This document shows positions 20,000 through 47,235 of a DNA stretch of 56,335 nt, piece by piece. A program made the translations under genes and the position numbers. The stretch is from Bacilli bacterium (GTDB lineage Bacteria > Bacillota_I > Bacilli_A > ML615J-28 > CAG-698): contig JBFXGS010000001.1 of NCBI GenBank assembly GCA_050177775.1, positions 1 through 56,335 of the forward strand, written 5' to 3'. Every line of letters starts with the position of its first letter. The first letter of the stretch is position 1. The notes under the pieces were generated by a model. The model worked only from the letters and a program-made list of their open reading frames with translations, was not told the DNA's origin and did not search any database.

Positions 20000-20812
20000 A
20001 TGAATTGGTTTGAAAAATTAATAGATTTCTTAAGTTATCAATTGCCGAGCGCACCCCAACCTTATGAAGCTTTCCATTTATTTTTTTTATTTTTAACAAT
20101 CTTCATTTGCATCATCATTGCTTTAAAATTATCCCATAGCAGCGATAAGCAAGATAAAAAATTATTACTGTTTTTTAGTGTTTTATTATTAAGTTTCGAA
20201 GTATACAAACAATTTGTTTTTACAATTGAAGGTAATGTTTGGGATTATCAGTGGTATGCTTTTCCATTTCAGTTTTGCTCAGTCCCGATGTATGTGGCTT
20301 TTATCACCGTTTTTTTAAAACCCGGAAAAGTCAAAAATGCCTTTTATAATTTTTTAGGTACTTTTTGTTTGTTTGCTGGTTTGGCAGCGATGTTCTATCC
20401 AAACGATGTTTTCATTCCGACGTTAGGTATTAGCATTCAAACGATGGTTCATCATGGCTCCATGGTTATTATTGGCTTTTATTGTTTAATTTCAGGAAGA
20501 ACCAATCTTCATTCCAAAAGCATAATTGGAAGCGCCATTATTTTTACAGGGTTATTTTTTATGGCATTAGGAATGAACTTATTGTTTAAAAATATTGGAG
20601 AGACATTTAACATGTTTTTTATCAGCCCCTATTTTTCATGCCATTTACCGGTTTTATCACAAATTCAAAGTCAGTTTGGCTACTATGCCTTTTTGGTAAC
20701 CTATTTAGTCGGGTTCATCGGTATCGCTTATGTTATTCTTTTGGTTGCGATGGGAATCAGAAATTGGCACTACAAGACCAAGAATTTTAGGAAGTTTGTT
20801 AAGGCAAATTAA
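20000..20812 (+). CDS. Polytopic integral membrane protein (YwaF/TIGR02206-like, tentative)
   Basis: 270 aa with about 7 hydrophobic helices and no catalytic motif recognised. Confidence 0.5.
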   Translation: MNWFEKLIDFLSYQLPSAPQPYEAFHLFFLFLTIFICIIIALKLSHSSDKQDKKLLLFFSVLLLSFEVYKQFVFTIEGNVWDYQWYAFPFQFCSVPMYVAFITVFLKPGKVKNAFYNFLGTFCLFAGLAAMFYPNDVFIPTLGISIQTMVHHGSMVIIGFYCLISGRTNLHSKSIIGSAIIFTGLFFMALGMNLLFKNIGETFNMFFISPYFSCHLPVLSQIQSQFGYYAFLVTYLVGFIGIAYVILLVAMGIRNWHYKTKNFRKFVKAN

Positions 20813-21025: not shown

Positions 21026-22492
21026 TTAATTTTCAATCGTTATTTTTATTTCGAAAGCACGATTCCAAGGGAAACAAGCGTTATAATTTAATGGGAACAA
21101 AGGGTCCGATAAAGCATGAAGATTTGTCTGCAACAATTGAATTAATTCTTTACTTGGTTTAAAGTCAAAGATATTGAGCAAGTTGGAATGCAAATACTGA
21201 TGAATTTTTGGTCTGACGATATCTTGGTAAAAGCAATCATCAATAATCCGTTCGAGTAAAAATTGATGACATAGTTCGTGGTTCGTAAAGTGTTTATCAC
21301 AAGTAATTAAAGCGGTTGCTAAAAGGCTACCAGTGGCATTTGATGCGGTATTCCACCCGCTGAACCCCTTCAATTTTAAGAAATCAATTTGTTTTAACAA
21401 TTGATAGCAAGCCCCGTTGGGAGCATTAATATCAAGTAAAAAAACAGGAATGTTATCTTTTAAGATGATATTTAATTTGTCAATAAACGCCAGAGTATCG
21501 GGATCAAAAGATATTTCGAGCGGTTTTTCTCGATCGCACACTTCCATTTTCTGCGAGTTGTTGCTTTGGAAAACAGCAAGAACAAAGGATGCGGAAGCAA
21601 AATCATCGGTTCTTTTCATGCTAAGAATGGACGTCATTTTTTGCAGGTTTTCGATATACGGGCGATCTTCAAACGGTAAGGGGTTTTTTAATAATTCTTC
21701 ATTGGGATGTAAAAGGAAATAAGTTAAATCTTGTTTTCTTATCTCGCGAATGATTTTGGCAAGTATAAAGCAGCTGGCTTCATCGGTTCCATTATAAAGC
21801 CAAGCTTTAGTCGCTAATTGACCTTCTTTTATTTTTGCTTCTAAAAGATCGTGTTCCAATGTTTGTAAACCATTGGGCATGGAGTCTTCTTGTAGGAGCA
21901 GCAAGAAATCAATTTTGTTTTGTTTTAATAAATCAAGGATGATTTTATTGACCTCATGTTTTTTAATCCGGGCAATTTCGTATGTTTTAAGAATATCAAT
22001 TGGTATTTTAGAACTAATTTCTTGAAACTTTTCATAATCAGAAGGGTTTTTATATCTGAGAAATTGTCCTTTATACCGACTAAATTCATTTATTAATTTC
22101 CAATATTGGGTTGTTTTCTCATCAAAAGTTGATATTGAAGTCCGAAGAACGGTATCAAAAGCGTAAATCTTTAATTTTGGATTAAGCGTTTTTAAACTTT
22201 TTAAAAACTTTATTTTATAATCAAGTTCTTCGACCGAATAATTGGCCTTTCGGCTTTGAATTAAACCACCGCTAATAAGACTGTCAATTGGACAAATCAA
22301 ATAATCTAAATGGTTTACTTCATTTTTAAGAAAGTTTTGAATAGCGGTGAAATCAAGTTTTGAGTGCAGAGTTCCAAGCAAGTTTTTTTCCATCGTTATT
22401 AGGTTGATGTTGGCCATTTTTGCAAGAGCAATGACCCAATCATAATTGCAAGGACGACTATCTAGCGGAATTAATCCAACATTTGTTTTCAT
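21026..22492 (-). CDS. DUF4127 family protein, paralogue 1 (divergent copy)
   Basis: 488 aa with no signal peptide. Shares IPLDSRPCNY, DSLISGGLIQSR, QEDS, SGWNTASNATGS, LLERIIDD and FPWNRAFEI with the two paralogues at 36063 and 39500. Confidence 0.65.
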   Translation of the reverse strand: MKTNVGLIPLDSRPCNYDWVIALAKMANINLITMEKNLLGTLHSKLDFTAIQNFLKNEVNHLDYLICPIDSLISGGLIQSRKANYSVEELDYKIKFLKSLKTLNPKLKIYAFDTVLRTSISTFDEKTTQYWKLINEFSRYKGQFLRYKNPSDYEKFQEISSKIPIDILKTYEIARIKKHEVNKIILDLLKQNKIDFLLLLQEDSMPNGLQTLEHDLLEAKIKEGQLATKAWLYNGTDEASCFILAKIIREIRKQDLTYFLLHPNEELLKNPLPFEDRPYIENLQKMTSILSMKRTDDFASASFVLAVFQSNNSQKMEVCDREKPLEISFDPDTLAFIDKLNIILKDNIPVFLLDINAPNGACYQLLKQIDFLKLKGFSGWNTASNATGSLLATALITCDKHFTNHELCHQFLLERIIDDCFYQDIVRPKIHQYLHSNLLNIFDFKPSKELIQLLQTNLHALSDPLFPLNYNACFPWNRAFEIKITIEN

Positions 22493-22564: not shown

Positions 22565-22593
22565 TTGACTAGACATTTAGTAAATGATATAAT
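22565..22593 (+). promoter_or_regulatory. Consensus sigma-A promoter of the first sugar-ABC operon, overlapping an operator-like motif
   Basis: TTGACT (22565-22570), 17 nt, TATAAT (22588-22593). The 11-mer TTGACTAGACA recurs at 41045. Confidence 0.75.
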
Positions 22594-22676: not shown

Positions 22677-24221
22677 ATGTTTAAGAAACTAATGATTGCT
22701 GTTTTAATGATCGTTTCTGTTTTCATGTTTGTCGGCTGTAATCAAGACGATGACATTGTTGAAAGTTTGGATTCCATTAAAATTTATGGCCCGTTTGACA
22801 CGTTCGACCCTGAAACCGATTATGTTCACCAATTAATAAAAGACATAACCGGTGTTGATGTTGATTATGACTTTTTACCACAGGATGGTGCTTCCGCAAA
22901 TACAAAATTGTATTTAGACATTGCCGGACAAGCACAATATCATCTTTTAAAACTTGCTCCTACTCAATTTGATCAATTACGTGCTGTTGGAGCACTGCTT
23001 GATATTACGGAATTACTAGAAGAATATGCCCCAAATATTACCAGTTCCGTAACTGAAGAAGTATGGAAAACAGCAACTTTTGATGGAAAAATCTATGGTG
23101 TTCCACAAAAGAATCCATCAAATAACATCAACAGTGCCTTATTCTTAAGAAAAGATATTTTTGTTGAGAATGATGTGGCATTGCCAACAACTTTAACTGA
23201 ATTTAAAGAAGCTTTAGTAGCTTTAAAAACAAAACTTGGTTCAGCATTTGTACCTTTCAGTGCAAGTTCTCATAATATTGAACCAATCAGAGGAGCGTTC
23301 GGGATTGTAACCGACTGGGTTCCACAAATTGATGGCAGTTTAAAATACTGGACGCAAACCGAAGCTTTCCAAGACTATGCCGATTATATGAAAGAATTAG
23401 TTGATTTGGGAGTTATGCAAGATGGTTACTTAACAATTCCTAATTATGGTGCAAATAGCCGTGCCGGATTGCAAAATGGGACTGTTGGTGTTACACTAGA
23501 TGCATGGTGGAGTGGTAATGGCATCATTAATGGCATCGCTGCTTCGGAAGGAAAAACTGAAGAATATGTCATCGAACACGCGTCAGAATATTTACATTTC
23601 ATTGATTCATTATTAGGCGATGTCAACTATGGTACTCCAGGAAAAGGCCAAGCCAAAATGGATTACTCCATTACATATTTCTATGCTATTCCAAAATACA
23701 TGGGAAATACCGCGATGGCGGTTATTAAATGGATGAATGAAAAAATGGATCCCGTTAATTTCAAACGTTTAACAATCGGTGAAGAAAACGTTCATCATAC
23801 CCTTGTTGACGGAAAATATTTCCCAATTTTAACGCCTGATGCCAATAATAAAGTTCCGTTTGATTCTTTCAATAAGGCCGATTATTTCTTAACAGGAATT
23901 CGTGAAGCTGATTACTCATTATATTGGCAATGCCGTGCCCGTAAGAATCCTCGTCAACAATTTGTTTGGGAAGGCATGAATACGGAAGCTCAAAAAACTG
24001 CGGTGGGAATTTATGACCGTGTTGGTTTAGCGCCTGGTTTCTTAATTTATGGAGCTAACAAAACAAAATTATCACAACTCACGACTGATTATTTGGTTAG
24101 TGTTATTACTGGTCAAGGAACACAAATGACACAAACGGAATTTAATGCGAAACTAGTTGCGGAAGCGCAATTAACAGAAAGCATTGCGGAAGTCAATGCT
24201 TGGTATGCGACACTTGAATAA
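22677..24221 (+). CDS. ABC transporter extracellular solute-binding lipoprotein (large LplA-type, CUT1)
   Basis: 514 aa. Signal peptide with lipobox FVGC. Size and context of large sugar SBPs, and followed by LplB/LplC-type permeases. Confidence 0.85.
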   Translation: MFKKLMIAVLMIVSVFMFVGCNQDDDIVESLDSIKIYGPFDTFDPETDYVHQLIKDITGVDVDYDFLPQDGASANTKLYLDIAGQAQYHLLKLAPTQFDQLRAVGALLDITELLEEYAPNITSSVTEEVWKTATFDGKIYGVPQKNPSNNINSALFLRKDIFVENDVALPTTLTEFKEALVALKTKLGSAFVPFSASSHNIEPIRGAFGIVTDWVPQIDGSLKYWTQTEAFQDYADYMKELVDLGVMQDGYLTIPNYGANSRAGLQNGTVGVTLDAWWSGNGIINGIAASEGKTEEYVIEHASEYLHFIDSLLGDVNYGTPGKGQAKMDYSITYFYAIPKYMGNTAMAVIKWMNEKMDPVNFKRLTIGEENVHHTLVDGKYFPILTPDANNKVPFDSFNKADYFLTGIREADYSLYWQCRARKNPRQQFVWEGMNTEAQKTAVGIYDRVGLAPGFLIYGANKTKLSQLTTDYLVSVITGQGTQMTQTEFNAKLVAEAQLTESIAEVNAWYATLE

Positions 24222-24246
24222 TTAATCCGAATTCGGAGGTAAGTCA

Positions 24247-24885
24247 ATGTTAAACAGAGCACTTTTTGTTTTGGGGCGTTTATTTTTATTAAATGTCATA
24301 TATATTCTAACGGTTGCTTTTAGCCTAGGAATATTAGTTGCCCCGGCAACAAGTGCTCTTTTCTATTGTACAAAAGATTTACTAAACAAAGATACCAAGG
24401 AATATGGGTTTCTTAAGCAATATATGAATATCATAAAAACCAAATTTCGTTTTAGTTTTTGGTTCGGTTTAATGGCAGCCTTAATTCTTTATCTTTGTAT
24501 TGTTAATCTCGATAACGTGTTATTAATGAATTATCCTTCTTGGTTGTTAAAGACAATTGTCGTTTTCCAGTATATCATCATTGTTGAAACTTCTTTAATG
24601 ACCGTCATGGTTCTTTTTTTAAATGGTTTGTTTTTATTTTCTAAGTTTTCTGATTTGTTGAAAATGGCTTTTTTTATTCTTCATCGTCATTTTTTTACAA
24701 CCTTAATCATGGTTATTACCATTACCGTTTTAGTATATGTTTTTGTTTTTTATCTTAATGCCTTTTTGTTGCTGTTATTTTTTAGTGTCGTTTATCTTTG
24801 GATAAATTTATTATATTGGCCCATCGTTAATAAATACATTGTTAAGAAGGAGGAAAAACCAGAATATGAGCAAAAAGCCGAATAA
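24247..24885 (+). CDS. DUF624 (YesL-like) membrane protein
   Basis: 212 aa. N-terminal LNVIYILTVAFSLGILVAPATSALF pattern typical of YesL-family proteins in sugar ABC operons. Confidence 0.7.
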   Translation: MLNRALFVLGRLFLLNVIYILTVAFSLGILVAPATSALFYCTKDLLNKDTKEYGFLKQYMNIIKTKFRFSFWFGLMAALILYLCIVNLDNVLLMNYPSWLLKTIVVFQYIIIVETSLMTVMVLFLNGLFLFSKFSDLLKMAFFILHRHFFTTLIMVITITVLVYVFVFYLNAFLLLLFFSVVYLWINLLYWPIVNKYIVKKEEKPEYEQKAE

Positions 24886-25804
24886 GTTGTTAAAACATTT
24901 AAATCAGTACGGCGCTTTGTATTTTTTCTTAATCCCGGGATTAGTTCTAGTTGCCATTTTTAACTATGTTCCGATGGCCGGAATTGTCATTGCCTTTAAA
25001 AACTATGATATTTTTGCCGGAAGGACCCCAATCGAATCCATCATCAAAAGTGATTGGGTCGGGTTAGCTCATTTTAAAGAGTTGTTCAGTAATACCGATT
25101 TTACCAACGCCTTTGAAAACACATTAATAATCAGTACTTACAAAATTGTCTTTCTATTTCCGATTCCCATCATCTTAGCGATTATGATAACCGACATCAA
25201 AGCCTTGTGGTACAAAAAAGTGATTCAAACCGTCTTATATTTGCCGCACTTTTTATCATGGATTGTTGTTACCGCGTTATTTATTCAAATCCTTGGACCT
25301 TATGGAGTTATCAATAATTGGCTAAAAAGTTTGAACATTATCGAGCATTCCCTGGCTTTCTTTGGAAACAACGATATTTTCCGCGGTTTAATTGTCATCT
25401 CCGCGGGTTGGAAAGAAGTCGGTTGGAATGCGATTATATATATTGCTGCCATTACGGGGATTAATCCCCAACTATTTGAAGCGGCAAAGATTGATGGTGC
25501 CAGTAAAATGCAACAAGTGTTTTATATTACCATCCCGTCCATTGCCAATACGATTGTGATGTTGTTTATTTTAAGAATCGGCGCCATTTTGGATGCCGGA
25601 TTCGACCAAATTTTTAACATGTATTCCTATGTTGTTTATGATAAAGGTGATATTTTATCAACACTAGTTTACCGTTCAGGTATCGGACAACAAAATTATA
25701 GTTTTGCGACGGCGGTTGGTTTATTCAATTCCGTTGTTGCTTTAATTATGGTCCTTGGTGGAAACTATTTATCACGCAAAATCTTTAAGAAAGGACTGTG
25801 GTAA
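24866..25804 (+). CDS. Sugar ABC transporter permease (LplB-like)
   Basis: EAA loop EAAKIDGASKMQQVFYITIP and 6 TM helices. Start at ATG 24866 with an AAGGAGGA RBS. Confidence 0.9.
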   Translation: MSKKPNKLLKHLNQYGALYFFLIPGLVLVAIFNYVPMAGIVIAFKNYDIFAGRTPIESIIKSDWVGLAHFKELFSNTDFTNAFENTLIISTYKIVFLFPIPIILAIMITDIKALWYKKVIQTVLYLPHFLSWIVVTALFIQILGPYGVINNWLKSLNIIEHSLAFFGNNDIFRGLIVISAGWKEVGWNAIIYIAAITGINPQLFEAAKIDGASKMQQVFYITIPSIANTIVMLFILRIGAILDAGFDQIFNMYSYVVYDKGDILSTLVYRSGIGQQNYSFATAVGLFNSVVALIMVLGGNYLSRKIFKKGLW

Positions 25805-25805
25805 T

Positions 25806-26672
25806 ATGCTTGAATCAAGGAATGATAAGATTTTTAGTATTATTGTTTACATCATATTATCGATATTTGGATTATCGATAACCCTTCCGTTCCTTAATTT
25901 ATTAGCAACATCGCTTTCGGATCAAGTCGCGGTATCGAACGGGAGTGTGTCTTTTTGGCCCAAAAATTTTACATTAAGTGCTTATCAATTTGTTATTCAA
26001 AATGAACAATTTTGGAACGGACTAAAGACGACCGTCTTTGTGACTTTTGTCGGAACCGGCTTAGCGATGGTCGTAACCACACTTGTTGCTTATCCGTTAA
26101 GTCTTCCTAAATTCCGTGTTCGCAAAATCTTTTTAATTATATTCATCATCGTGATGCTCTTCAATGGCGGGTTAATTCCCACCTATTTACTAATCAATCA
26201 AATTGGACTGAGAAATAATCGTTGGGCGCTCATATTGCCATCTTTGATTTCAACTTATAACATGTTGTTAATTAAAAATTATTTTGAAACTCTTCCCGAA
26301 GCTCTTTATGAATCGGCTAAAATTGATGGAGCTTCCGAATTTCAAATCTTTTTAAAAATCACTTTGCCGCTATCTTTACCGACGCTTGCTACGGTTGCTT
26401 TATTCTATGCGGTGGGTTTTTGGAATGCCTATGTTAATGGGATGCTCTATATTTCGACGCCAAGCAAAATGCCTTTGCAAACTTATTTACAAACGCTCTT
26501 AAATATGGCTTATATTCCGGCTCATGAATTATCTCCGGAAGTCGCAGAAAGCCTTTCAACGGAATCGATTCGTGCCGCCACCATTTTCTCAGCCACCATT
26601 CCTATTTTGATTTTATATCCTTTCTTACAAAAATATTTTGTGAAAGGATTAGTGTTGGGTTCGGATAAATAA
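25806..26672 (+). CDS. Sugar ABC transporter permease (LplC-like)
   Basis: EAA loop ESAKIDGASEFQIFLKITLP. Start at ATG 25806, immediately after the upstream stop. Confidence 0.9.
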   Translation: MLESRNDKIFSIIVYIILSIFGLSITLPFLNLLATSLSDQVAVSNGSVSFWPKNFTLSAYQFVIQNEQFWNGLKTTVFVTFVGTGLAMVVTTLVAYPLSLPKFRVRKIFLIIFIIVMLFNGGLIPTYLLINQIGLRNNRWALILPSLISTYNMLLIKNYFETLPEALYESAKIDGASEFQIFLKITLPLSLPTLATVALFYAVGFWNAYVNGMLYISTPSKMPLQTYLQTLLNMAYIPAHELSPEVAESLSTESIRAATIFSATIPILILYPFLQKYFVKGLVLGSDK

Positions 26673-27097
26673 TGAAAGATTCTTTGAAAATCTTTTTATT
26701 AAGGTCGTGGGTCATTGGAGTTGTGGTCGTGGTTGGGCATTTTATGATGAAATTACAGCACTTGTCGATTGGTCTTATTTTAGGAGTAATTAATACCTTT
26801 TTAGTAGACTTGGTTGTTTTAACGATTTTAAAAGGAAATCAAACCCACTTTCCGAAAGGTTGGAAATTGTTTTTACGAACAATTCTTAATATTGTGACCG
26901 CCATTGGTCTTAGTTTAATTATTCGCTTAATAGATTTAGCACTTTTAAATAAAGGTTTAATTACCATGCCCATTGAAACTTTTCGTTTTATTGCTTATTA
27001 CCAAGTAATGTATTATTTTGGTTTCTTTGTTTATAAAAAAATCTTGGTCATAATAGAGAGGAAAAAATATGAGTCGAATACTAACAAGCCTTCATAA
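26672..27097 (+). CDS. Small hypothetical membrane protein (about 4 TM)
   Basis: 141 aa, hydrophobic, with no recognisable motif. Its start overlaps the permease stop by 1 nt. Confidence 0.5.
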   Translation: MKDSLKIFLLRSWVIGVVVVVGHFMMKLQHLSIGLILGVINTFLVDLVVLTILKGNQTHFPKGWKLFLRTILNIVTAIGLSLIIRLIDLALLNKGLITMPIETFRFIAYYQVMYYFGFFVYKKILVIIERKKYESNTNKPS

Positions 27098-27761
27098 TAA
27101 GCCCATGACGTTAGTTGTCAGTTTACCCGAAAACACTTATGAGATGGCCAAAGCCGCATGGGAAGCGCAAGCAGATGCCATCAAAGTTCACATTAATCTT
27201 TTTCATAATGCCAGCCTTGTCAAGTTTGGTTCTTTAGAAGAACAACGACCGGTTTTAGAAAAAATAATTCACGATTCACCGGTTCCGGTCGGAATCGTTG
27301 CCGGCCAAGACACAAAAACAAGCGAAGCAGTCATTGAAGAACTTGTGAAAATGGGATTTGATTTTATATCTTTGTATGGTCATCATATGCCAGTCTCGTT
27401 AGTTAATCGTCGAGATGTTTCTAATTTATTTGCCATTGATTATAGTTATTCTTTAGAAGAAGTTAAAACCATTACCAATTCTTTTATTGCGGATATTTTA
27501 GAATTATCCATTCTACCTCATGAAGAATATGGACAAAGGTTAAATGCCCGCGATTTGAGTAGATACTTAGCGTTTTCACAAATATCAAGCATTCCAACGC
27601 TTCTTCCTTCACAGCGTTTACTTTTGCCTAGTGATGTAAACATGATTGCAAAATGCGGGGTGAAGGCGATTATGATTGGCGCAATCGTTTTTGGTCATGA
27701 TTTGGATCAAATGTCCAAACAAATAATGCAGTTTAAACAAGCCATCAATCAATTAAATTAA
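27069..27761 (+). CDS. Hypothetical cytoplasmic protein, possibly a (beta/alpha)8 phosphate-binding barrel
   Basis: 230 aa. Alternating beta-alpha pattern (LVVSLP, ADAIKVH, PVGIVAGQ, DFISLYG, ILELSIL, IPTLLPSQ, GVKAIMIGAIVFG), reminiscent of NanE/ribulose-phosphate-binding barrels. AGAGGAAAA RBS. Confidence 0.45.
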   Translation: MSRILTSLHNKPMTLVVSLPENTYEMAKAAWEAQADAIKVHINLFHNASLVKFGSLEEQRPVLEKIIHDSPVPVGIVAGQDTKTSEAVIEELVKMGFDFISLYGHHMPVSLVNRRDVSNLFAIDYSYSLEEVKTITNSFIADILELSILPHEEYGQRLNARDLSRYLAFSQISSIPTLLPSQRLLLPSDVNMIAKCGVKAIMIGAIVFGHDLDQMSKQIMQFKQAINQLN

Positions 27762-27774
27762 AGGGGGATTAAAA

Positions 27775-28737
27775 ATGTCACTTACTGTTTTAGCAATTCC
27801 AACTTATGATAGTCGGGCTTTCGATGTCCGCCGTTTTATTCATCCACCCATTTTTGATGGCATTATCGACCAAGAAAAAAAGCCGCCGCAACCACCCGCT
27901 TGCTTTTTAGGAGCATGGTATCGCAAGGTGTTTTCCTCGTTTGATTCTTGGTTGGGAATTGAGGGCGTGATTGAACTTGGTGAATTTACTCCCGATGAAG
28001 CGCGCTTTAATCTTGACGGTAAAGGGCGATACATGGATGTCCCAAGCATTTATATGGGGGGAAAAAGTGCATTCGAGAGTGATGCCGGACTGGGTTTAGG
28101 ACCAACATATTTAACAGGTGATTTTTCGGCGGAGTTGTCAGGCTCCAGTCCCAAAATGGCTTACCGCCCGTTTTGGCGTTTTATCTATCAAGATGCAATG
28201 GAAATATCTGGAAATGTAAAACGTCGCGAGATTAATTCATGGAATGTCTCGGATCCAAGAAGTGTTATCTATAACTACTTTCCCGGCGATGTTTTAAGAA
28301 TGAGCGTCTATAGTCCGATTAAGGATTATTTACAATTGCATATTGAAGTAATTAAAACAACAACCATTCCCAAATATGTGAACATTAGAAAACAATACCA
28401 TTTGGTAAATGATCGTCCCGATGATTTTTTTAGTCCCATCTTTTTATCAAAAGGACATGGGTACAAAGATGCAGAATTTAAAAGAGTCAATGCCATCGAT
28501 CAATTTGGCAATGAAGGATTTCACGCGAAACCGACGAAAGCCGAAGTATCAAAAGCGACTTGGCATGAAACCTATTTATATCGGATGCTAGATGGGGAAA
28601 TAAAAAGAGTTCCTTTTTCAAAAGCAAGACAAACAAGTATGATTTGTCCCAATGTGGAAGCGGTTAATGTTGAACTAATCAACCCAGATATGGGAAGCGA
28701 GGCCATAACCATTCAACCAGGTAAAATTAAGGGGTAA
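27775..28737 (+). CDS. Orphan 320-aa cytoplasmic protein, paralogue A (family unassigned)
   Basis: No signal peptide or TM helix. Roughly 60 percent identical by eye to the 35090-36052 product. GGGGGA RBS. Confidence 0.6.
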   Translation: MSLTVLAIPTYDSRAFDVRRFIHPPIFDGIIDQEKKPPQPPACFLGAWYRKVFSSFDSWLGIEGVIELGEFTPDEARFNLDGKGRYMDVPSIYMGGKSAFESDAGLGLGPTYLTGDFSAELSGSSPKMAYRPFWRFIYQDAMEISGNVKRREINSWNVSDPRSVIYNYFPGDVLRMSVYSPIKDYLQLHIEVIKTTTIPKYVNIRKQYHLVNDRPDDFFSPIFLSKGHGYKDAEFKRVNAIDQFGNEGFHAKPTKAEVSKATWHETYLYRMLDGEIKRVPFSKARQTSMICPNVEAVNVELINPDMGSEAITIQPGKIKG

Positions 28738-28751
28738 AGGGGAAAATATTT

Positions 28752-30455
28752 ATGAATTTTAATGAGAAAACTTATATCTGTAAAGATGTTTATACGATTG
28801 ACGGCATCTTAAACTTTATCGGAAAAATCCCCGTTGATATCAACGGGAGAACAGTCACTTATAAAATGTATGCCAATTATCATGAACTGTTAGACAAGAA
28901 TGTTTTTGAGATAAAAAGCCAAGGAATTCGTTTATATGTTCACTTTGATGAAAAAATAAAACCAGATGGTTATTCGATAAACATTACCACAGAAAATAAA
29001 ATAATCATTAAAGTCGCCAATAACCGCGGGATTCGTTATGCTTTTAAAATGCTCAATGACCTTGTGAAAAAAACAAAACAAGGTTTTACGCTTCCAATTA
29101 TCTTAATTGAAGATGAACCTTCTTTTTCGGTTAGAGGGATTGTGGAAGGATATTATGGGGAACCATGGACTTTAGATGAACATCTTGATATGGCTGATTT
29201 TATGGATCAATATCGGTTGAATGCGTTTATGTACGCTCCCAAAACAGATCCATATCATCGCGATAAATGGTTTGAATTATATCCGGATGATCTTTTTTCC
29301 ACGCTTTGTTCAGTGAAAGACAAATTAGAGAGTAAGGATATTGATTTCTATTATTGCATTTCACCAGGCCATGCCAAGAAACCTGAAGACGGATTTAAAT
29401 ATGTCGGTGATGAAGATTTCGAAAGACTGTTTAATAAATTAAGACAAGTTATCGACATTGGCGTCAATCACTTCGGTTTGTTCTTAGATGATATTGATTA
29501 TCAACTGAGCGGAGAAAACCAACGAATTTTTAAACGGCCGGGAATTGCTCATGCCCATATTTGCAATAAAGTATATGATTTCTTAAAGGAAAACGTCCTT
29601 GACCCAACTCTGGTTATGTGTCCAACCGAATATCATCAAATTGGTCAGACCGAATACCGCCATGATTTAAAAGAATATTTAGATGATGAAATTGTAGTGT
29701 TTTGGACAGGAGATCGGGTTTGTGCTGAAGCAATTACAGAAAATGAGGCTAAAGAAACATTAGAAGCCTATGAAAAACCTATTTTTATTTGGGACAATTT
29801 TCCTGTTAGTGATTTTACATATGGAGTTAGAGAGTTTATTGCTCCGATTAAGAATCGATCCGCTAACTTAGGAGCCTATGCCGAAGGGTTCTTTATTAAT
29901 CCAAGCCTTCATTATCATATTTCAAAAATGGGGATGATTACGATGGCTCATTATGCTTGGAATACTTCCCACTATGATCCGGAAAAATCTTTTGAAATAG
30001 CGCTTAATAGTGTAAGTCGAGAATTTGCAAATTTAGGTCAAGCTTATTTTAATTATAATTATCCAAATGTTCTCTCCCATGGAAACCTAGAAATGGAAAA
30101 ACAAATGGTTGAAAACCATGATTATCCCGCCATTATAAATTATATGCAAGATATGTCTAAGAGTGCAAAAGCTTTATTGACCCTTAAAGAACCTATAATT
30201 GATGAATTGAAACCATGGTTACAAAGAGCTGTGGAAGAAGAAATAATGGTGAAAAAAATAATAGAAGGAAAAATTGTTAAACAAGAGTTGTTGGCCTTTT
30301 TTGAAAACATCAAGTTTTCAGGCGGAAAAATCCTTGATTATTTAATCGCTGATTTAAAACTATTTAGTGATGAAGAATATAGCACGCTCATTGCCAAAAG
30401 AAGAGGTGGAGAATGGTACCGCGTTTTTGAATATAAACGTTGGTCCAACCATTAA
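28752..30455 (+). CDS. GH84 family beta-N-acetylglucosaminidase (O-GlcNAcase/NagJ-like), cytoplasmic
   Basis: 567 aa. Motifs RGIVEGYYGEPWT, YAPKTDPYHRDKW, FGLFLDDIDY (catalytic DD), CPTEYH, FWTGDRV and IWDNFPVSDF. No signal peptide. Confidence 0.85.
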   Translation: MNFNEKTYICKDVYTIDGILNFIGKIPVDINGRTVTYKMYANYHELLDKNVFEIKSQGIRLYVHFDEKIKPDGYSINITTENKIIIKVANNRGIRYAFKMLNDLVKKTKQGFTLPIILIEDEPSFSVRGIVEGYYGEPWTLDEHLDMADFMDQYRLNAFMYAPKTDPYHRDKWFELYPDDLFSTLCSVKDKLESKDIDFYYCISPGHAKKPEDGFKYVGDEDFERLFNKLRQVIDIGVNHFGLFLDDIDYQLSGENQRIFKRPGIAHAHICNKVYDFLKENVLDPTLVMCPTEYHQIGQTEYRHDLKEYLDDEIVVFWTGDRVCAEAITENEAKETLEAYEKPIFIWDNFPVSDFTYGVREFIAPIKNRSANLGAYAEGFFINPSLHYHISKMGMITMAHYAWNTSHYDPEKSFEIALNSVSREFANLGQAYFNYNYPNVLSHGNLEMEKQMVENHDYPAIINYMQDMSKSAKALLTLKEPIIDELKPWLQRAVEEEIMVKKIIEGKIVKQELLAFFENIKFSGGKILDYLIADLKLFSDEEYSTLIAKRRGGEWYRVFEYKRWSNH

Positions 30456-30464
30456 GGAAGCCTT

Positions 30465-31133
30465 ATGATGATGGAAAAAATAAAAAATCAGTTAATTGTT
30501 TCTTGTCAAGCTAAAGATAATGAACCATTAAAAGATCCAATGATTATGGCAAAGATGGCAGCATCGGCACTACTTGGGGGAGCAAAAGGCATTAGGGCAG
30601 CGGGCGTTGAAGATATTAAAGCCATTAAAGCATTTAACGATACGCTTGTTATCGGTTTAATAAAACGAAATTACCCTGATTCTGAAGTTTACATTACACC
30701 AACCAAAGTTGAAGTTTTAAAGTTGGTTGAAAGTGGTTGTGAAATAATTGCTCTCGATGGAACAAATCGTCACCGCCCCAATCAAGAAACTTTGGTAAGT
30801 TTAATCGTATTAATCCATGCCAACAATCGTTTAGCCATGGCAGATATTTCAACATTTGAAGAAGCTTTAATGGCGCAACAAGCAGGTGCTGATTGTATTT
30901 CCACAACTTTATCGGGATACACAAGTTATTCAAAGCAACAAGCGGGGCCTGATTTAAAATTACTTAGTAAATGTGTTGCAAAATTACAAATACCCGTGAT
31001 TGCGGAAGGACGGATTCGTAACCCTCAAGATTTGAAACGCGTTTTAAAGAAAAAACCTTTTGCAGTTGTCATCGGAACAGCGATTACGAGACCTTCAGAA
31101 ATCACCAAAACATTTGTGGAGTGCTTCAAATGA
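30465..31133 (+). CDS. nanE: N-acetylmannosamine-6-phosphate 2-epimerase
   Basis: 222 aa with the NanE pattern (LIVSCQA..EPL, IALDGT, ADIST, TTLSGYT, IAEGRI, VVIGTAITRP). Confidence 0.88.
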   Translation: MMMEKIKNQLIVSCQAKDNEPLKDPMIMAKMAASALLGGAKGIRAAGVEDIKAIKAFNDTLVIGLIKRNYPDSEVYITPTKVEVLKLVESGCEIIALDGTNRHRPNQETLVSLIVLIHANNRLAMADISTFEEALMAQQAGADCISTTLSGYTSYSKQQAGPDLKLLSKCVAKLQIPVIAEGRIRNPQDLKRVLKKKPFAVVIGTAITRPSEITKTFVECFK

Positions 31134-32773
31134 ACCGAAAAACTATTGTAGATTCAACCCATGATATATTGGCTTTTTGGAATCGTGAATTTGCGAACAA
31201 CTATCCTATTTCCGAACGCTTATTTAAAGAAAAGATTCTTAATTCAAAGGAAGTTGCTTTGGACGGATCGTATTCACTATATGACCAGGAAGAGTATATT
31301 GGCAGCGTTATTCTAAAATTTAACCAAATTAATGATAAAAAGCTTCAAGATAATGCTTATATTTCCTTTTTATTTGTGAATCCCAAATTTCGTAACCGCG
31401 GGTATGGTTCCCTTTTTATCAGTGATGTAATTCGTATTTGTATTGAAAATGAAAAATCAATGCTATACGTCGGCGGAGACAATGATTGTTTATTTTCGGG
31501 TGTTTTTTTAGATAACAATGATTTCGTTCATCAATTTTTTAAGGACCATCGGTTTAACATTGCTTATAAAAATTATAACTTAATATGTAAAACCTCACCC
31601 CAAGTACCAAATGATGAATATGAATATTCCACTTTAAAAACAGAAGAAGAACGAAACGAATTATTAAAACAAGTTCGCAAATTGTTTCCATCGCGTTGGC
31701 ATTATGATATTCAGAATTGTGAGCCGCAAGCGTTCTTCGTTGCGAAAGAAAACAAGGTAATTGTCGGGTTCGTTCGGTTAAACACTCCGCTTTTTTCACA
31801 AATTGCCAATAGTGTTAATACTTACCCTTTGTACAAAATGCTGGGAGGGATTGGACCGGTAGCCATTTTTCCCGAGAAAAAAGGCTCGGAACTAGCCAAC
31901 AACATCGTAAAACAAGCCGTAAAACATTTGTTTGATTTGGGTTGTTCAGAGGTAATAGTTGACTGGACAAACTTTATTGATTTCTTCAAGCAATCAGGAT
32001 TTTCCAATGTATCTAACTCCTATGTTCTTTACGAGATGCGCATTCGTGAAAAAATAAAAGGACCAAAAACGCATATCTATCAAGTTATCGAAAATGATTT
32101 GCGGCATGAAATCCTTGAAGGAAAATATAAACACGGGGACATTATTCCAAGTGAGGTGGAATTAGCGGCCACGTATAAAGTGACGAGAATGACTGTTCGT
32201 CAAGCCATTAGTAATTTGCTAATTGACGGCTTTCTTTATCGACATAAAGGCCGCGGGACTTTTGTAACTTACAACAAGCGGAACATTGATTTTGAGGATA
32301 AACCTTTCTTTTCTTTCACAAATGATAAAAATAATAACGGGGAATTAAGAACGACGGTTTTACTCTTTGAAATTAGAGCCGCTGATGAATTATTAGCCTT
32401 ACGTTTACAACTAAAATTAGGGGATCCTCTCTATTATGTGGAAAGACTGACTGCCCTAGAAAATAAGCCGTTGCTATTTGAAAGACTTTATCTTCCTGCT
32501 AATATGTATAATAATTTAAGCGTTGAAGTCTTTCAAAAATCATTTTATGAATATGCAAAAAACGAATTGCATTGGAATTTACTTTCCTACAATATCCATA
32601 TTGAGGCCAGAGGATTAAGTGGTCGAGCTGCGGAAGTGTTGCAATTATCAACGGGAGATCCAACTCTTTATTGCAGCAGTGTGACTCATTTAGCGAATGG
32701 ACGCGCCATTCTTTATTCTCGAACTTTCTTCAATGCCGAACAAGTAAACTTTTCTCATCAATTTTCTTGTTAA
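31130..32773 (+). CDS. Fusion protein: tandem GNAT-like domains + GntR/HutC-family wHTH + UTRA effector domain
   Basis: N-terminal roughly 310 aa has two GNAT-like cores (FVNPKFRNRGYGSLF; GPVAIFPEKKGSELANNIV). This is followed by IYQVIENDLRHEILEGKYKHGDIIPSEVELAATYKVTRMTVRQAISNLLIDGFLYRHKGRGTFV and a UTRA-like C-terminus. ATGA overlap with the nanE stop. Confidence 0.8.
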   Translation: MNRKTIVDSTHDILAFWNREFANNYPISERLFKEKILNSKEVALDGSYSLYDQEEYIGSVILKFNQINDKKLQDNAYISFLFVNPKFRNRGYGSLFISDVIRICIENEKSMLYVGGDNDCLFSGVFLDNNDFVHQFFKDHRFNIAYKNYNLICKTSPQVPNDEYEYSTLKTEEERNELLKQVRKLFPSRWHYDIQNCEPQAFFVAKENKVIVGFVRLNTPLFSQIANSVNTYPLYKMLGGIGPVAIFPEKKGSELANNIVKQAVKHLFDLGCSEVIVDWTNFIDFFKQSGFSNVSNSYVLYEMRIREKIKGPKTHIYQVIENDLRHEILEGKYKHGDIIPSEVELAATYKVTRMTVRQAISNLLIDGFLYRHKGRGTFVTYNKRNIDFEDKPFFSFTNDKNNNGELRTTVLLFEIRAADELLALRLQLKLGDPLYYVERLTALENKPLLFERLYLPANMYNNLSVEVFQKSFYEYAKNELHWNLLSYNIHIEARGLSGRAAEVLQLSTGDPTLYCSSVTHLANGRAILYSRTFFNAEQVNFSHQFSC

Positions 32774-32775
32774 CT

Positions 32776-32798
32776 AGTGCCATTAAATGGCACTTTTT
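32776..32798 (+). terminator. Intrinsic terminator ending the first operon
   Basis: AGTGCCAT-TAA-ATGGCACT hairpin followed by TTTT. Confidence 0.75.
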
Positions 32799-32802
32799 CA
32801 AT

Positions 32803-32836
32803 TTGTATATACAAGTTATTTTTTAAATGGTATAAT
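32803..32836 (+). promoter_or_regulatory. Promoter of the second operon with a perfect 12-bp palindrome operator candidate
   Basis: TTGTATATACAA (32803-32814) is a perfect palindrome overlapping the -35 region. TATAAT lies at 32831-32836. Confidence 0.6.
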
Positions 32837-32855
32837 TAAAAAAAGGAAGAGAAAT

Positions 32856-35090
32856 ATGAGGAAAATTTTTATGGCTTTTTTGTTAGCAACGCTTTTATCC
32901 GGGGTTAGTATTAATGCCGAAACCACTGCCATTGTTGATGATTTTTTAAACGGGAAGGATGTGGTCCGCTATGAAAACTATTTGGTTTATTATAGTTTCA
33001 ATTCGACTTTAAAATCACCTGCAAACCAATGGGGATATGAAATTGCGGTTAGCAGTAATCACTTTGTGATTGATTGTGACACAAACGCAACCATGGAAAC
33101 AGGAGGATATATCATATCCGGGCATGGGACGAAAAAAACGACGTTGCAAAATGTCAAAGTTGGTGATCAAGTTAGTATCAATTGGGAAACTAAACAAATC
33201 GTGATTACGCGCGATAGTTTGAAAAGCCCGCAATTTTTAGCTCATCGTTTTAAAACAACCTCGGAAAACTATTACAATCAAGCAATCGAGGGCGGATATG
33301 ACTTTAACAGAACGCTTGTTGAACATATGCTTAATTTAAATGATAATGATTTACTGCAGATTGATGCCATCGTTGAAAAAGAAAGTCCCACAAGCAATGA
33401 AATTGATTTGGTTAAGATACTGGCTGATGGCATTGATGCTAGGATGCTATCCATCAAGTTTTTAACTTCTTTCTCTTCAACTACGGAAATTAGAGCTTTA
33501 TGGCATCGACCCAATGCGGCAGGCATTAAAGAGAACAACTTAGAAAATTTAAAGGCGTTTGTGCAAGAAGTAAAGGACCTTGGGTTTAATACCATTTTTG
33601 TGGAGACGCTTTGGAATGGATATGTCAGTTATCGGTCGGATATCATTGCTACGCATCCGCAAGTTGCTAATTTTACCTATGGTGAAGAATATAAAAACGA
33701 TTATATTGCGGCTTTAATTGGTGAAAGTCAAAAATTAGGCATTGATGTTCATGCTTGGTGCCACACCTTTAATGCGGGGAATGCAACCTACAAAGCCACT
33801 TCCATTAAAGATGAATGGTTATTGGAAGATTATCAAGGACTTACTTTACATCCAAATAGTTATGGAGGCAGTTATTATTTAGATCCATCTAATCCGGAGG
33901 TACTGACTTACTTGACAAGCGTTTTTTCGGAAATGGTTGAAAAATACGATTTTGCGGGAATTCAATTAGATTACATACGTTATTATGATAATAATTATTT
34001 ACAAACGCCGATTCGTGATAGTGGTTACGGATTACTCCCGGAAACACAATTTAAAACAGAATATTCATTAACCGGTGATGTTCGAACCCTCATTAAACAA
34101 AACACCTATTTGGAATTATGGAATGAATGGCGCCAAAACAATGTAACCAATGCTGTTCGAACTTTTTCTTCGGCTTTAAGAAGGCTTAATCCGCAGATCA
34201 TCATATCCGCGGATGTTGTTTCGAGTATCAATTATGCGAAAAGTACATATATGCAAGACTGGAAAACATGGGTTGAAAAAGGATACATTGATTTATTATG
34301 CCCAATGATTTATACCGGAAGTGCCGAAACTATTGAAAAAGACTCGTTAGCGATAATGAATCAAATAAAAAACCTTTCGTTTTTAGCTTCAGGGATTGCT
34401 CCAATTTATTATGGGCATTCGTTAGAAATCAATCATGATGAATTCGTCGCAACAAAAAGCGGCGATGGTTTAGCCTTTTTTGCAAGCCAAAACATCGTTG
34501 GATTAAGTGATGTTACTCAATCAATTAAAACAGGGGTTTTTAGAAACACGGCAGTATCTCCGCTTCGAGAAACCAAATTGGTTATCACAGAAGCTTTGTT
34601 GAACTTGAAAAGCTATGTTGAAAAGGCGATGGCGAATGAACCGCAACAATTAATGTTTTTAAACCATGTCGAAGAAATGATGACAATGAAGTGTGATAAC
34701 CCGGCTGATTATCAAGCCCTTATGGAAAAAATGATTTTTGTAAGAACGATAACTCCGTACATCTCTTCTTCTTCAATGCGAGAAATATTCTCACAAGAAT
34801 TAACTCAATTAATTCATATTCTTGATGTGAAAATAAGTCGAGAAATGATTGCTTATGGTTTTTATAACCCTGATGATGAAGAAAGGCCCAATCCGGATCA
34901 ATTTGATTACCCAATCGATAATCCAGAACCCGAACCTGAACCGAAACCCGAGCCGGAACCAGAACCGGAACCCGAGCCTGAACCAGAGCCGGATGAAGAA
35001 AAAGGTTGTTTTAAAGTGTTTTCGTTTCCTTCTGTTTTGCTTCTTGGATTAATTTTTATCTTTATTCGAAAAAAAGAAAGAGGTTATTAA
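32856..35090 (+). CDS. Secreted, C-terminally anchored GHL10 (DUF187/YngK-like) glycoside-hydrolase-like protein
   Basis: Signal peptide MRKIFMAFLLATLLSGVSINA. GHL10-like core RALWHRPNAAGIKENNLENLKAFVQEVKDLGFNTIFVETLWNGYVSY ... GIQLDYIRY. C-terminal PE repeat, KGC, TM helix and RKKERGY tail. Start trimmed to ATG 32856. Confidence 0.75.
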   Translation: MRKIFMAFLLATLLSGVSINAETTAIVDDFLNGKDVVRYENYLVYYSFNSTLKSPANQWGYEIAVSSNHFVIDCDTNATMETGGYIISGHGTKKTTLQNVKVGDQVSINWETKQIVITRDSLKSPQFLAHRFKTTSENYYNQAIEGGYDFNRTLVEHMLNLNDNDLLQIDAIVEKESPTSNEIDLVKILADGIDARMLSIKFLTSFSSTTEIRALWHRPNAAGIKENNLENLKAFVQEVKDLGFNTIFVETLWNGYVSYRSDIIATHPQVANFTYGEEYKNDYIAALIGESQKLGIDVHAWCHTFNAGNATYKATSIKDEWLLEDYQGLTLHPNSYGGSYYLDPSNPEVLTYLTSVFSEMVEKYDFAGIQLDYIRYYDNNYLQTPIRDSGYGLLPETQFKTEYSLTGDVRTLIKQNTYLELWNEWRQNNVTNAVRTFSSALRRLNPQIIISADVVSSINYAKSTYMQDWKTWVEKGYIDLLCPMIYTGSAETIEKDSLAIMNQIKNLSFLASGIAPIYYGHSLEINHDEFVATKSGDGLAFFASQNIVGLSDVTQSIKTGVFRNTAVSPLRETKLVITEALLNLKSYVEKAMANEPQQLMFLNHVEEMMTMKCDNPADYQALMEKMIFVRTITPYISSSSMREIFSQELTQLIHILDVKISREMIAYGFYNPDDEERPNPDQFDYPIDNPEPEPEPKPEPEPEPEPEPEPEPDEEKGCFKVFSFPSVLLLGLIFIFIRKKERGY
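34924..34992 (+). repeat. Imperfect GAACCN hexanucleotide repeat encoding a (Pro-Glu)n linker
   Basis: Encodes PEPEPEPKPEPEPEPEPEPEPEP. A similar tract lies at 39367-39420. Confidence 0.85.
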
Positions 35091-36052
35091 TGAGCTTAAC
35101 AATAAAAGTAATACCGACTTTAGACAGTCAATATGTCGATAGTCGCAAGTTTCAAAACGCCAAAATTTATTATGGAAGTATCGACAATGAAATAAAAGCT
35201 CCCATTTCACCAAAGTGTTTTTTAGGAGCTTGGTACCGAAAAGTTTTTTCATCCTTTGACTATTGGCTTGGAATAGAAGGAGTTATAAAACTGGGAGAAT
35301 TTATTCCTGACAAAGCCCGTTTTAATCTTGATGGAAAAGGCCGATTTATGGATAATCCTTCAATATATATGGGTGGAAAGAGCCAAAAAGAAAGCGATGC
35401 TGGCCTAAACTTAAATCTTTCTTATCTTTCGTTTGATACCAAAGATGATTTGCAATTATCTTCGCCTAAAGTGGCTTACCGTCCTTTTTGGCGTTACATT
35501 TACAATATGGCAACGGATGAAAGCGGAAATGTGGATCGTCATGAAGTTAATTCATGGAACGTTCATAATCCCCGTCATTTGGGAAATTATTATTTTCCGG
35601 GTGATGTAATTAAAATGAGCGTATTTAGTCCGTTGAGGGACTATTTACAATTGCGAATTGATGTCATCGAACCGACCAACAATCCTAAATATGTGAAAAT
35701 ACGCAATAATTACAATTTGGAAAACAATTTACCAACATCATTTTTAAGTCCGCTGTTCTTTTCCAAAGGACATGGTTACGAAAAAGCAGAATTTAAAAGA
35801 GTGAACTCCATTGACCAATATGGCAACGAAGGATTTGTTGCCCAAAATACTAATGCTGAAGTTACGGAGGCTCTGTGGCAAGAAGTGTATTTATATCGGG
35901 AGATTAATGGGGAGATTTGTAAAATACCTTTTTTACAAAATCGCCAAACATCCATGATTTGTCCAAATACAGATGCGATAACCGTAAGGAATCATCCTTT
36001 TGACCCAACTGGGGAAACCATACAAATTCATCCCGGGAAAATTAATCTTTAG
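35090..36052 (+). CDS. Orphan 320-aa cytoplasmic protein, paralogue B
   Basis: Same length and colinear blocks as 27775-28737 (CFLGAWYRKVFSSFD, WLGIEGVI, ARFNLDGKGR, SIYMGGKS, AYRPFWR, FPGDV..MSV, SKGHGY..AEFKRVN, RQTSMICPN). TAATG overlap with the upstream stop. Confidence 0.6.
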   Translation: MSLTIKVIPTLDSQYVDSRKFQNAKIYYGSIDNEIKAPISPKCFLGAWYRKVFSSFDYWLGIEGVIKLGEFIPDKARFNLDGKGRFMDNPSIYMGGKSQKESDAGLNLNLSYLSFDTKDDLQLSSPKVAYRPFWRYIYNMATDESGNVDRHEVNSWNVHNPRHLGNYYFPGDVIKMSVFSPLRDYLQLRIDVIEPTNNPKYVKIRNNYNLENNLPTSFLSPLFFSKGHGYEKAEFKRVNSIDQYGNEGFVAQNTNAEVTEALWQEVYLYREINGEICKIPFLQNRQTSMICPNTDAITVRNHPFDPTGETIQIHPGKINL

Positions 36053-36062
36053 GAGAAAAGGC

Positions 36063-47216: not shown

Positions 47217-47235
47217 AGAACAAGGAGGTGGACTT

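Follow-up and report, generated by a model that had tools for sequence, protein, structure and literature searches.

What is a protein with the motif order of an acid protease doing among amino-sugar genes? The question is raised by a gene at positions 27775-28737 of a 56,335-bp stretch of DNA (the window, in what follows), which is a complete contig of a metagenome-assembled genome (MAG) deposited as "Bacilli bacterium". The gene, which we call TARGET_A, has a second copy in the window:

27775..28737, + strand: TARGET_A, 320 amino acids (aa), ATG start; NCBI MGD9886353.1, "hypothetical protein"
35090..36052, + strand: TARGET_B, paralogue of TARGET_A; NCBI MGD9886358.1, "hypothetical protein"

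The two products are 62% identical across 319 residues, without gaps, and are probably a new type of enzyme in the breakdown of N-acetylhexosamine (HexNAc) polymers. The explanation toward which we lean, with somewhat less than even confidence, is that both are distant, enlarged relatives of the "peptidase G1-like" beta-sandwich proteins, nearest to the Bacillus YrpD/YncM/CPAVM1 family and next to the fungal eqolisins (G1 peptidases); they lack the Gln53/Glu136 dyad of the eqolisins and would cleave anionic HexNAc-containing fragments in the cytoplasm. The acid proteases of the G1 family come from fungi and from a small number of bacteria.

A first-pass annotation, made from the letters of the window, placed this 320-aa open reading frame (ORF) exactly and described its product as a cytoplasmic orphan. 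Cytoplasmic location is consistent with the predictions: neither TARGET_A nor TARGET_B has a signal peptide or a transmembrane segment, and the N-terminus is not hydrophobic. An orphan it is not. A search of 5.8 billion clusters returns 470 homologous clusters at 90% identity, all "hypothetical" and devoid of Pfam domains, from Acholeplasma, Haploplasma, Haloplasma, Izemoplasmatales and "Bacilli" MAGs; among 1.84 billion 50%-identity representatives, a profile search picks out 241 proteins, of which 54 reach E ≤ 1e-30; and a scan of 185,579 species genomes yields 318 encoding stretches, those of gut Clostridia included. Homologues span Mycoplasmatota, Clostridia and some Bacteroidota, and genomes hold two or three diverged paralogues. 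Sequence searches of Pfam, NCBIfam and PDB, with the single protein and with a family profile, gave nothing significant; the family is conserved, unnamed and not previously described.

What does the protein look like? An AlphaFold2 model of TARGET_A, built from a 56-sequence alignment, is almost all-beta, with a per-residue confidence (pLDDT) of 95.5 and a predicted template-modelling score (pTM) of 0.92. Its best PDB matches by Foldseek, with E-values from 8e-8 to 3e-4 and probability 1.00, are given below with template-modelling (TM) scores normalised on the matched structure:

8xai: "Protease CPAVM1" from B. subtilis; E 8e-8 to 3e-7; TM 0.62-0.67
4hfs: YncM; E 1.8e-7; TM 0.65
2ifr, 1s2b, 2ifw: scytalidoglutamic peptidase (SGP); E 9e-7 to 6e-6; TM 0.63-0.65
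8pn5: HC7 mucinase with a triglycopeptide; E 1e-4 to 3e-4; TM ~0.40 (0.42 on the query)

When normalised on the query, TM is ~0.44, because TARGET_A is ~115 residues longer than G1 and YrpD proteins. Glycoside hydrolase family 16 (GH16) glucanases (e.g., 6hy3 and 4bow) match weakly (E 3e-3 to 1e-2, TM ~0.25), M2AP and galectins are also among the weak matches, and a Foldseek search of viral structures (BFVD) finds nothing at E ≤ 1e-3. The model thus confirms, at the level of the fold, a G1/YrpD-like beta-sandwich, and the annotation had anticipated both the sandwich and its G1-like nearest solved relatives.

Is the kinship also visible in sequence? YncM and CPAVM1, whose sequences were recovered from the PDB alignments, match the Pfam family PF15493 ("YrpD") at 1e-86 to 1e-88. 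When the TARGET profile is compared with these two by hhalign, the probability is 74% (E 2.8e-5, score 39.6); with six YrpD-family sequences it is 29% (E 5.7e-4, score 32.3), and the controls for this comparison score 12.5 +/- 2 (maximum 17.3) with shuffled columns and 11.6 and 13.4 with reversed sequences. The PF15493 profile itself does not match TARGET_A or TARGET_B at E ≤ 10. The kinship to G1 that the annotation had read from the motifs stays at background in profile-profile comparison: hhalign against a 43-sequence G1 alignment gives a probability of 2%, or 3.9% with a 198-sequence family profile, and only the GDxxxMSV hairpin aligns (score 24.2 vs 13.0 +/- 2.5 for shuffled columns, maximum 21.6). 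PF01828 (Peptidase_A4) does not match either copy at E ≤ 10; a G1 hidden Markov model (HMM) finds none of the 268 family proteins at E < 0.05, and one of 75 distant members has a sub-threshold match (E 0.004). A Smith-Waterman alignment of TARGET_A with SGP is at shuffle background (z ~0). When the four SGP blocks are placed colinearly, the top score is 76 vs 45 +/- 6.6 for shuffles, none of which (of 300) reaches it; the comparison was made post hoc, and blocks 1 and 3 account for the score. The TARGET family is nearer to YrpD-like proteins than to fungal eqolisins and is a member of neither Pfam family; no confident profile hit in another family was found, so that the outcome which the annotation had named as its refutation, a background-level G1 signal coupled with a confident hit elsewhere, did not arise.

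YrpD and YncM thus offer the closest comparison, with the best structural matches and the only profile-level sequence signal from a known family. They have in common with TARGET the motifs IY-x-G, E-x-D-x-G-L (E-[AS]-D-I-G in YrpD), [KR]-P, P-G...M and [WF]-K, and they are exported, as are the lipoprotein-type relatives of TARGET. The differences are equally plain: TARGET has 320 aa vs ~205 aa, with insertions at roughly 68-87, 111-126, 140-165 and 195-230; the copies in the window are cytoplasmic; and TARGET resides in amino-sugar loci, YrpD and YncM among AbrB-regulated secreted proteins of Bacillus.

How, then, do the motifs map? In TARGET_A the four blocks follow in the order SWLGIEG (58-64), AYRPFWRFIY (129-138), FPGDVLRMSV (169-178) and AEFKRVNAID (233-242), with SIYMGGKS at 91-98, all where the annotation had put them; TARGET_B keeps all four with conservative changes (YWLGIEG, AYRPFWRYIY, FPGDVIKMSV, AEFKRVNSID), again as reported. 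The SGP motifs to which they were likened had been given correctly as well: in 1s2b_A (206 residues) WVGIDG occupies 39-44, AWYEWYP 66-72, GDSIQMSV 86-93 and AEFIIED 131-137, positions read from a sequence that matches 1s2b_A at 206/206. Order alone does not fix the register, and residue equivalences were drawn from low-confidence profile alignments and strand counting. The hhalign pairings, with YncM except for the last one, are:

TARGET IEGVIELGEF with YncM FTAKIVLPET
TARGET PSIYMGG with YncM TPYIYSGF
TARGET ESDAGLGL with YncM TEADIGLQY
TARGET AYRPFW with YncM NVWKPLM (YRPF to WKPL)
TARGET YFPGDVLRMSVY with YncM GFRPGSTVQMTIY
TARGET FPGDVLRMSVY with FRPGSTVQMTIY (alignment to YrpD)

A 22-residue segment of YncM can be placed gap-free on SGP TAWVGIDGDTCQTAILQTGFDW; this puts YncM Asp60, and hence D103 of TARGET_A, on Gln53. 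ESDAGLGL is therefore probably the Gln53 strand, with D103 at the Gln53 position, and the hairpin topology of the model supports this placement: in its DSSP string, strands 47-53 and 57-67 pair in a tight hairpin that resembles G1 beta1/beta2, and after a 20-residue loop strands 88-97 and 101-110 make a second tight one, resembling G1 beta3/beta4. WLGIEG would then sit on the strand that corresponds to beta2, and its likeness to WVGIDG is probably deceptive; the true counterpart of WVGIDG, judging from the YrpD alignment and the hairpin topology, would be SIYMGG. Of the remaining blocks, GDxxxMSV appears to be a true match, block 2 seems right to within one or two residues, and block 4 plausibly corresponds, by strand order, to the AEFIIED strand. 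In the profile comparisons G171-V178 is the sole block that aligns to both G1 and YrpD. The motif alignment to SGP is thus upheld for GDxxxMSV and probably fails for WLGIEG, which would belong to a different strand, and for the Glu of AEF. The motif codons in TARGET_A are:

28075..28092, + strand: E101-S-D103-A-G-L, the E-x-D motif on a beta strand
28285..28308, + strand: G171-D-V-L-R-M-S-V178, aligning with G1 GDSIQMSV and YrpD PGSTVQMT in the profile comparisons
28471..28518, + strand: A233-E-F-K-R-V-N-A-I-D-Q-F-G-N-E-G248, strand and loop, with boundaries from the AlphaFold2 model

What has become of the catalytic dyad? In eqolisins it consists of Gln53 and Glu136, the latter being the second Glu of AEFIIED. 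The "AEF" Glu of TARGET_A, E234, therefore corresponds to the non-catalytic E132, and the E136 position would be taken by V238. There is no Gln at either candidate position for Gln53, M94 in the register of the annotation or D103 in the YrpD-anchored one, so the reported absence of the catalytic Gln holds in both. Conservation, computed over 87 representatives below 60% identity, points elsewhere. The two Glu residues that the annotation proposed to mutate, E63 (of GIEG) and E234 (of AEF, otherwise S or Q), are conserved at only 63% and 47%, and M94 may be any hydrophobic residue (M/L/V/F/I). By contrast, Y93 reaches 98% and V238 97%; D103 and Q243 95%; K51 and D88 93%; E101, R135, K236, R237 and E247 92% each; D242 91%; and R77 87%. 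The best-conserved polar set thus comprises E101-x-D103, D88, D242, Q243 and E247, together with a basic cluster of K51, R77, R135, K236 and R237. E101 and D103 share one strand face, as do R131, F133 and R135, and likewise E234, K236, V238 and D242. An acidic pair and further carboxylates beside a strongly basic patch would suit an anionic ligand such as a sugar phosphate. With AEF aligned to AEF, the Glu136 equivalent is V238 (97% Val); a shift that would place D242 there is conceivable when strands are counted and not superposed in 3D.

Two other active-site motifs were considered and set aside. The GH16 motif ExDxxE reads E101-S-D103-A-G-L in TARGET_A, without the third Glu; the GH16 likeness is limited to the general jelly-roll sandwich, a weak structural match, and the E-x-D pair on one strand. 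The FKxxxxxxQ / QxH (187-189) pattern is reminiscent of alginate lyases of family PL7, but Q187 and H189 are not conserved and no PL7 enzyme is found in the top 50 fold matches. Separately, C43 (27901-27903) and C291 (28645-28647) of TARGET_A co-vary in 198 sequences (both present in 159, both absent in 35, discordant in 4), which suggests that the two residues touch in the folded protein, be it as a disulfide in exported members or at a metal or structural site.

Which genes accompany TARGET? TARGET_A starts 13 nt behind the preceding gene and ends 14 nt ahead of the next, and therefore belongs to an operon; its start is preceded, at a distance of 7-8 nt, by a strong Shine-Dalgarno sequence, GGGGGA (ribosome-binding site AAAGGGGGATTAAAAATG). 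The ATG of TARGET_B overlaps the stop codon of the gene before it, GHL10 (TAATG). The surrounding genes are:

21026..22492, - strand: DUF4127 copy a (Pfam); divergent, at the locus edge
22677..26672, + strand: sugar ATP-binding cassette (ABC) importer, with a lipoprotein solute-binding protein (SBP), a DUF624 membrane protein and two permeases; heads the TARGET_A operon
26672-27097, + strand: 141-aa protein with three predicted transmembrane segments, between permease and orf230
27069..27761, + strand: orf230, a conserved cytoplasmic protein of 230 aa, directly 5' of TARGET_A
28752..30455, + strand: GH84 beta-N-acetylglucosaminidase, cytoplasmic (Pfam NAGidase 8.5e-85), 14 nt 3' of TARGET_A
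30465..31133, + strand: NanE, N-acetylmannosamine-6-phosphate 2-epimerase
31121..32773, + strand: GNAT domain fused to a GntR/UTRA regulator
32787..35090, + strand: GHL10 glycosidase-like protein with a signal sequence and a C-terminal anchor, extracellular, directly 5' of TARGET_B
36000..37565, + strand: DUF4127 copy b, cytoplasmic (Pfam 1.2e-142), directly 3' of TARGET_B
37567..39507, + strand: NAGPA-type phosphodiester glycosidase with a signal/anchor sequence and a DGGGS motif at residue 370
39476..41011, + strand: DUF4127 copy c (Pfam)
41104..46485, + strand: 1793-aa surface lipoprotein with Ig-like domains, found after NAGPA/DUF4127 in many related loci

A second ABC system follows the 1793-aa lipoprotein. 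Export signals are present on NAGPA, GHL10, the 1793-aa protein and the SBPs, and on none of TARGET, GH84, the DUF4127 copies, orf230 and NanE. The DGGGS motif is described as invariant in NAGPA for recognition of GlcNAc-1-phosphate (PMC13474241). DUF4127 itself has no NCBIfam name and no PDB sequence match, and a literature search turned up no mention of either DUF4127 or PF13552. The AlphaFold2 model of copy b is of the alpha/beta type and confident (pLDDT 95.5), and its best PDB matches are TIM barrels of the xylose-isomerase type (E ~1e-4); the TM of these matches is only 0.19-0.26, and no function was therefore transferred. The real starts of copies b and c are probably the Met codons at 36063 and about 39500, because these fit the conserved N-terminus MKKI.YIPLDERPCNY; the TTG codons at 36000 and 39476 probably lie too far upstream.

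Is this arrangement peculiar to the window? We compared 75 loci, which had been selected on similarity and cluster phylogenetically, and labelled neighbours by BLAST to the window proteins (E ≤ 1e-8) on crude ORF calls. In Izemoplasmatales, a core cassette of GHL10-TARGET-GH84-DUF4127-NAGPA-large lipoprotein recurs; in Acholeplasma, the cassette reads DUF4127-esterases-PF12831 flavoprotein-TARGET-NanE-NagB. The counts for 42 distinct cytoplasmic members are:

DUF4127: within +/-4 genes in 25/42, immediately adjacent in 5
PF12831 flavoprotein: within +/-4 genes in 18/42, immediately adjacent in 15
NAGPA: within +/-4 genes in 17/42, immediately adjacent in 7
NanE: within +/-4 genes in 13/42, immediately adjacent in 8
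GHL10: within +/-4 genes in 13/42, immediately adjacent in 8
GH84: within +/-4 genes in 12/42, immediately adjacent in 11

ROK kinase, NagA/NagB, SIS, SGNH and GDSL esterases and PIG-L deacetylase also recur. These neighbourhoods support the annotation in that the context is carbohydrate-related and DUF4127 is a genuine partner. What the conserved cassette suggests is a scavenging pathway for HexNAc polymers that is frequent in Acholeplasma, Izemoplasma, Haloplasma and gut Clostridia; a literature search found no paper describing such a route.

Domain architectures tie the same players together. Among the loci, 46 distinct members have an N-terminal extension, mostly with a lipoprotein-type signal, and frequently adjoin a solute-binding protein; the extension, of 130-300 residues and often Ig-like, is found in about half of the loci members, and the same kind of extension is present in 51 of 228 database proteins with a near-complete TARGET domain. 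Surface and cytoplasmic forms side by side are what families of glycan-degrading enzymes typically have. In a gut "Bacilli" MAG (locus L035, 8378-10951), one 857-aa ORF comprises a full DUF4127 (1-534) and a full TARGET domain (539-853) that is 52% identical to TARGET_B; this could be a real fusion or an assembly error deleting a stop codon. P0151, a secreted protein of 997 aa apparently from Bacteroidota, combines a TARGET-like domain (~167-318) with a NAGPA phosphodiester glycosidase domain (460-577) and a C-terminal sorting domain of the type IX secretion system. Fusions to PG_binding_1 or His_Phos_1 are seen in single members, and Ig-like fusions also occur. Through these fusions the family is functionally tied to DUF4127 and to phosphodiester glycosidases, and cell-wall-type polymers are suggested as substrates.

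How might such a protein work? In the explanation we prefer, exported NAGPA, GHL10, the giant lipoprotein and the lipoprotein-type TARGET paralogues would fragment a HexNAc-1-phosphate-linked or related polymer outside the cell, and the adjacent ABC transporters would import the resulting fragments. The cytoplasmic TARGET would bind an anionic, probably phosphorylated, HexNAc-containing fragment in a cleft where the acidic pair E101-x-D103, on the Gln53-equivalent strand, may replace the eqolisin dyad, surrounded by D88, D242, Q243 and E247 and by the basic cluster of K51, R77, R131, R135, K236 and R237. Cleavage would proceed by carboxylate acid/base catalysis, at a glycosidic, glycosyl-phosphate or glycoconjugate bond; TARGET, GH84 and DUF4127 would complete it in the cytoplasm, and NanE, with NagA/NagB encoded elsewhere in the genome, would send HexNAc-6-phosphate to glycolysis. 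A bolder version of this explanation, which we regard as doubtful, makes TARGET the founder of a new carbohydrate-active class on the glutamic-peptidase fold: it would act as a hydrolase or lyase on HexNAc-phosphodiester or HexNAc-glycoconjugate bonds by means of the E-x-D carboxylate pair. Together with DUF4127, the orf230 family, the PF12831 flavoprotein, NAGPA and GHL10, it would form one step of a hitherto undescribed pathway of several enzymes by which wall-less Mycoplasmatota and gut Clostridia feed on HexNAc-1-phosphate-linked cell-wall polymers, teichoic-acid-like or other, of neighbouring microbes.

Several observations weigh against an enzyme acting on amino sugars. No solved glycoside hydrolase or lyase is found among the close structural matches in the PDB, and the ExDxxE motif of the GH16/GH7 type is absent. 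The Clostridial lipoprotein members lie outside obvious sugar operons, next to uracil permease, uracil phosphoribosyltransferase and MatE. HexNAc-phosphate polymer fragments as the substrate are a guess from the neighbouring genes alone, and the putative catalytic site was mapped by low-confidence profile alignment and strand counting. Finally, the closest structural relatives with a stated activity, SGP, "Protease CPAVM1" (reported in the literature as a secreted protease) and HC7 with its triglycopeptide, are all peptidases. Could TARGET be one too? It would then be a peptidase or glycopeptidase built on the G1 fold, with E101 or D103 and a further carboxylate as its acidic dyad, and its role would be to trim glycopeptides brought into the cell, such as HexNAc-Ser/Thr peptides or muropeptide stems, whose sugars would pass to GH84, NanE and NagA/B. 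An acidic residue at the Gln53 position has precedents in neprosin and in the "di-glutamate" HC7, with Glu for Gln53; GH84 enzymes remove O-GlcNAc from peptides, and GH84 is often an immediate neighbour (11/42); and one family member is fused to a PG_binding_1 domain. We nevertheless consider this unlikely: the Glu136 equivalent in the AEF register is the nearly invariant V238, Peptidase_A4 and hhalign give the negative or background results described above, the transporters are of the sugar type (SBP_bac_1/8 with BPD_transp_1) and not of the peptide type, the core cassette has no other peptidase genes, and the strongly basic cleft suggests an anionic ligand. The canonical version, a MEROPS G1 eqolisin with a Gln/Glu dyad, is barely credible. 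It accounts for the fold match to SGP (E ~1e-6) and for the four short blocks colinear with SGP motifs, but it is contradicted by the sequence, which has no Gln at M94 (variable, hydrophobic) or D103 and probably has V238 at the Glu136 position; moreover, there is no PF01828 match, and the protein is cytoplasmic, without a propeptide or signal.

If the catalytic dyad is lost, does TARGET need to be an enzyme at all? It could be a non-catalytic, lectin-like sugar-binding or specificity subunit of DUF4127, or of NAGPA in secreted forms, which presents the substrate to its partner enzyme or regulates it. The "Rosetta-stone" DUF4127-TARGET fusion, the TARGET-like domain joined to NAGPA in P0151 and the tight adjacency of TARGET and DUF4127 would all fit, as would the sandwich itself, since the concanavalin A-like type is a common carbohydrate-binding scaffold, and the presence of M2AP and galectins among the weak fold matches. 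However, more than 10 charged residues, a one-strand carboxylate pair among them, are 91-98% conserved, a pattern more like an active site than a lectin; DUF4127 is not nearby for 17 of the 42 cytoplasmic members and most Clostridial ones; and two or three diverged paralogues per genome are what enzyme families with differing specificities have. A purely binding role is thus, in our judgment, distinctly unlikely.

Eqolisins (G1, PF01828; SGP and aspergilloglutamic peptidase) share with TARGET the beta-sandwich fold, the GDxxxMSV hairpin and a colinear strand order, but TARGET lacks their Gln53/Glu136 dyad, secretion, propeptide and G1 disulfide pattern. The di-glutamate mucinase HC7 (8pn5) has a G1-like domain of similar size (~340 aa) in which an acidic residue replaces Gln, and a catalytic Glu200; it differs in being secreted with carbohydrate-binding modules, and with no sequence similarity detected to TARGET the likeness is a fold match only. 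HC7 is reported to act on HexNAc-decorated substrates and has been described as a bridge between glycan hydrolases and peptidases (Narimatsu et al., Nat Catal 2024, as cited in PMC13003899).

If TARGET is catalytic, the G1 or "peptidase G1-like" fold would extend to a cytoplasmic, non-Gln/Glu enzyme on amino-sugar substrates; to our knowledge, its representatives so far are acid proteases, neprosin and a single family of mucinases. Catalysis would also provide a functional handle on the proteins that travel with TARGET: DUF4127 (more than 2,300 clusters), the orf230 family, bacterial NAGPA, GHL10 and DUF5696. The shared E-x-D motif may, in turn, inform the function of B. subtilis YrpD and YncM.

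Some of the neighbours have features of their own. orf230 has no match in Pfam, NCBIfam or PDB; its invariant residues are K39, H41, N43, H46, D98, E131, E145, R157 and R161, and in other genomes (loci L046-L055 and L067) it lies directly upstream of DUF4127. The 141-aa membrane protein, likewise without a family match, overlaps orf230 by 29 nt and is kept only in the closest relatives (L004, L005, L007 and L009). The fusion of GNAT, an N-terminal acetyltransferase domain, to a NagR-like GntR/UTRA regulator is unusual; it stands beside TARGET genes in many loci and is sometimes duplicated. The best sigma-70-like site, TTGACT-17-TATAAT with an extended TG, is at 22565-22593, 5' of the SBP gene, and a terminator-like hairpin at 32776-32794 separates GNAT-GntR from GHL10; together they suggest two transcription units, one with TARGET_A and one with TARGET_B, although site counts overall are not above chance.

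At the edge of the locus, a TMEM164-family membrane protein (20000-20812, + strand) recurs beside TARGET/DUF4127 loci in unrelated genomes (L003-L007, and L056-L074 as "u11"). Downstream, a solute-binding protein of 973 aa (47209-50130, + strand) has its SBP domain only at ~590-880, behind an unassigned N-terminal part of ~590 residues. An ORF of at least 711 aa (about 54200-56335, + strand) runs off the end of the window and is probably a DUF5696 protein, by synteny with L043-L054; shortly past the contig end one would expect a third TARGET paralogue, of the lipoprotein type and accompanied by an ABC system of its own.

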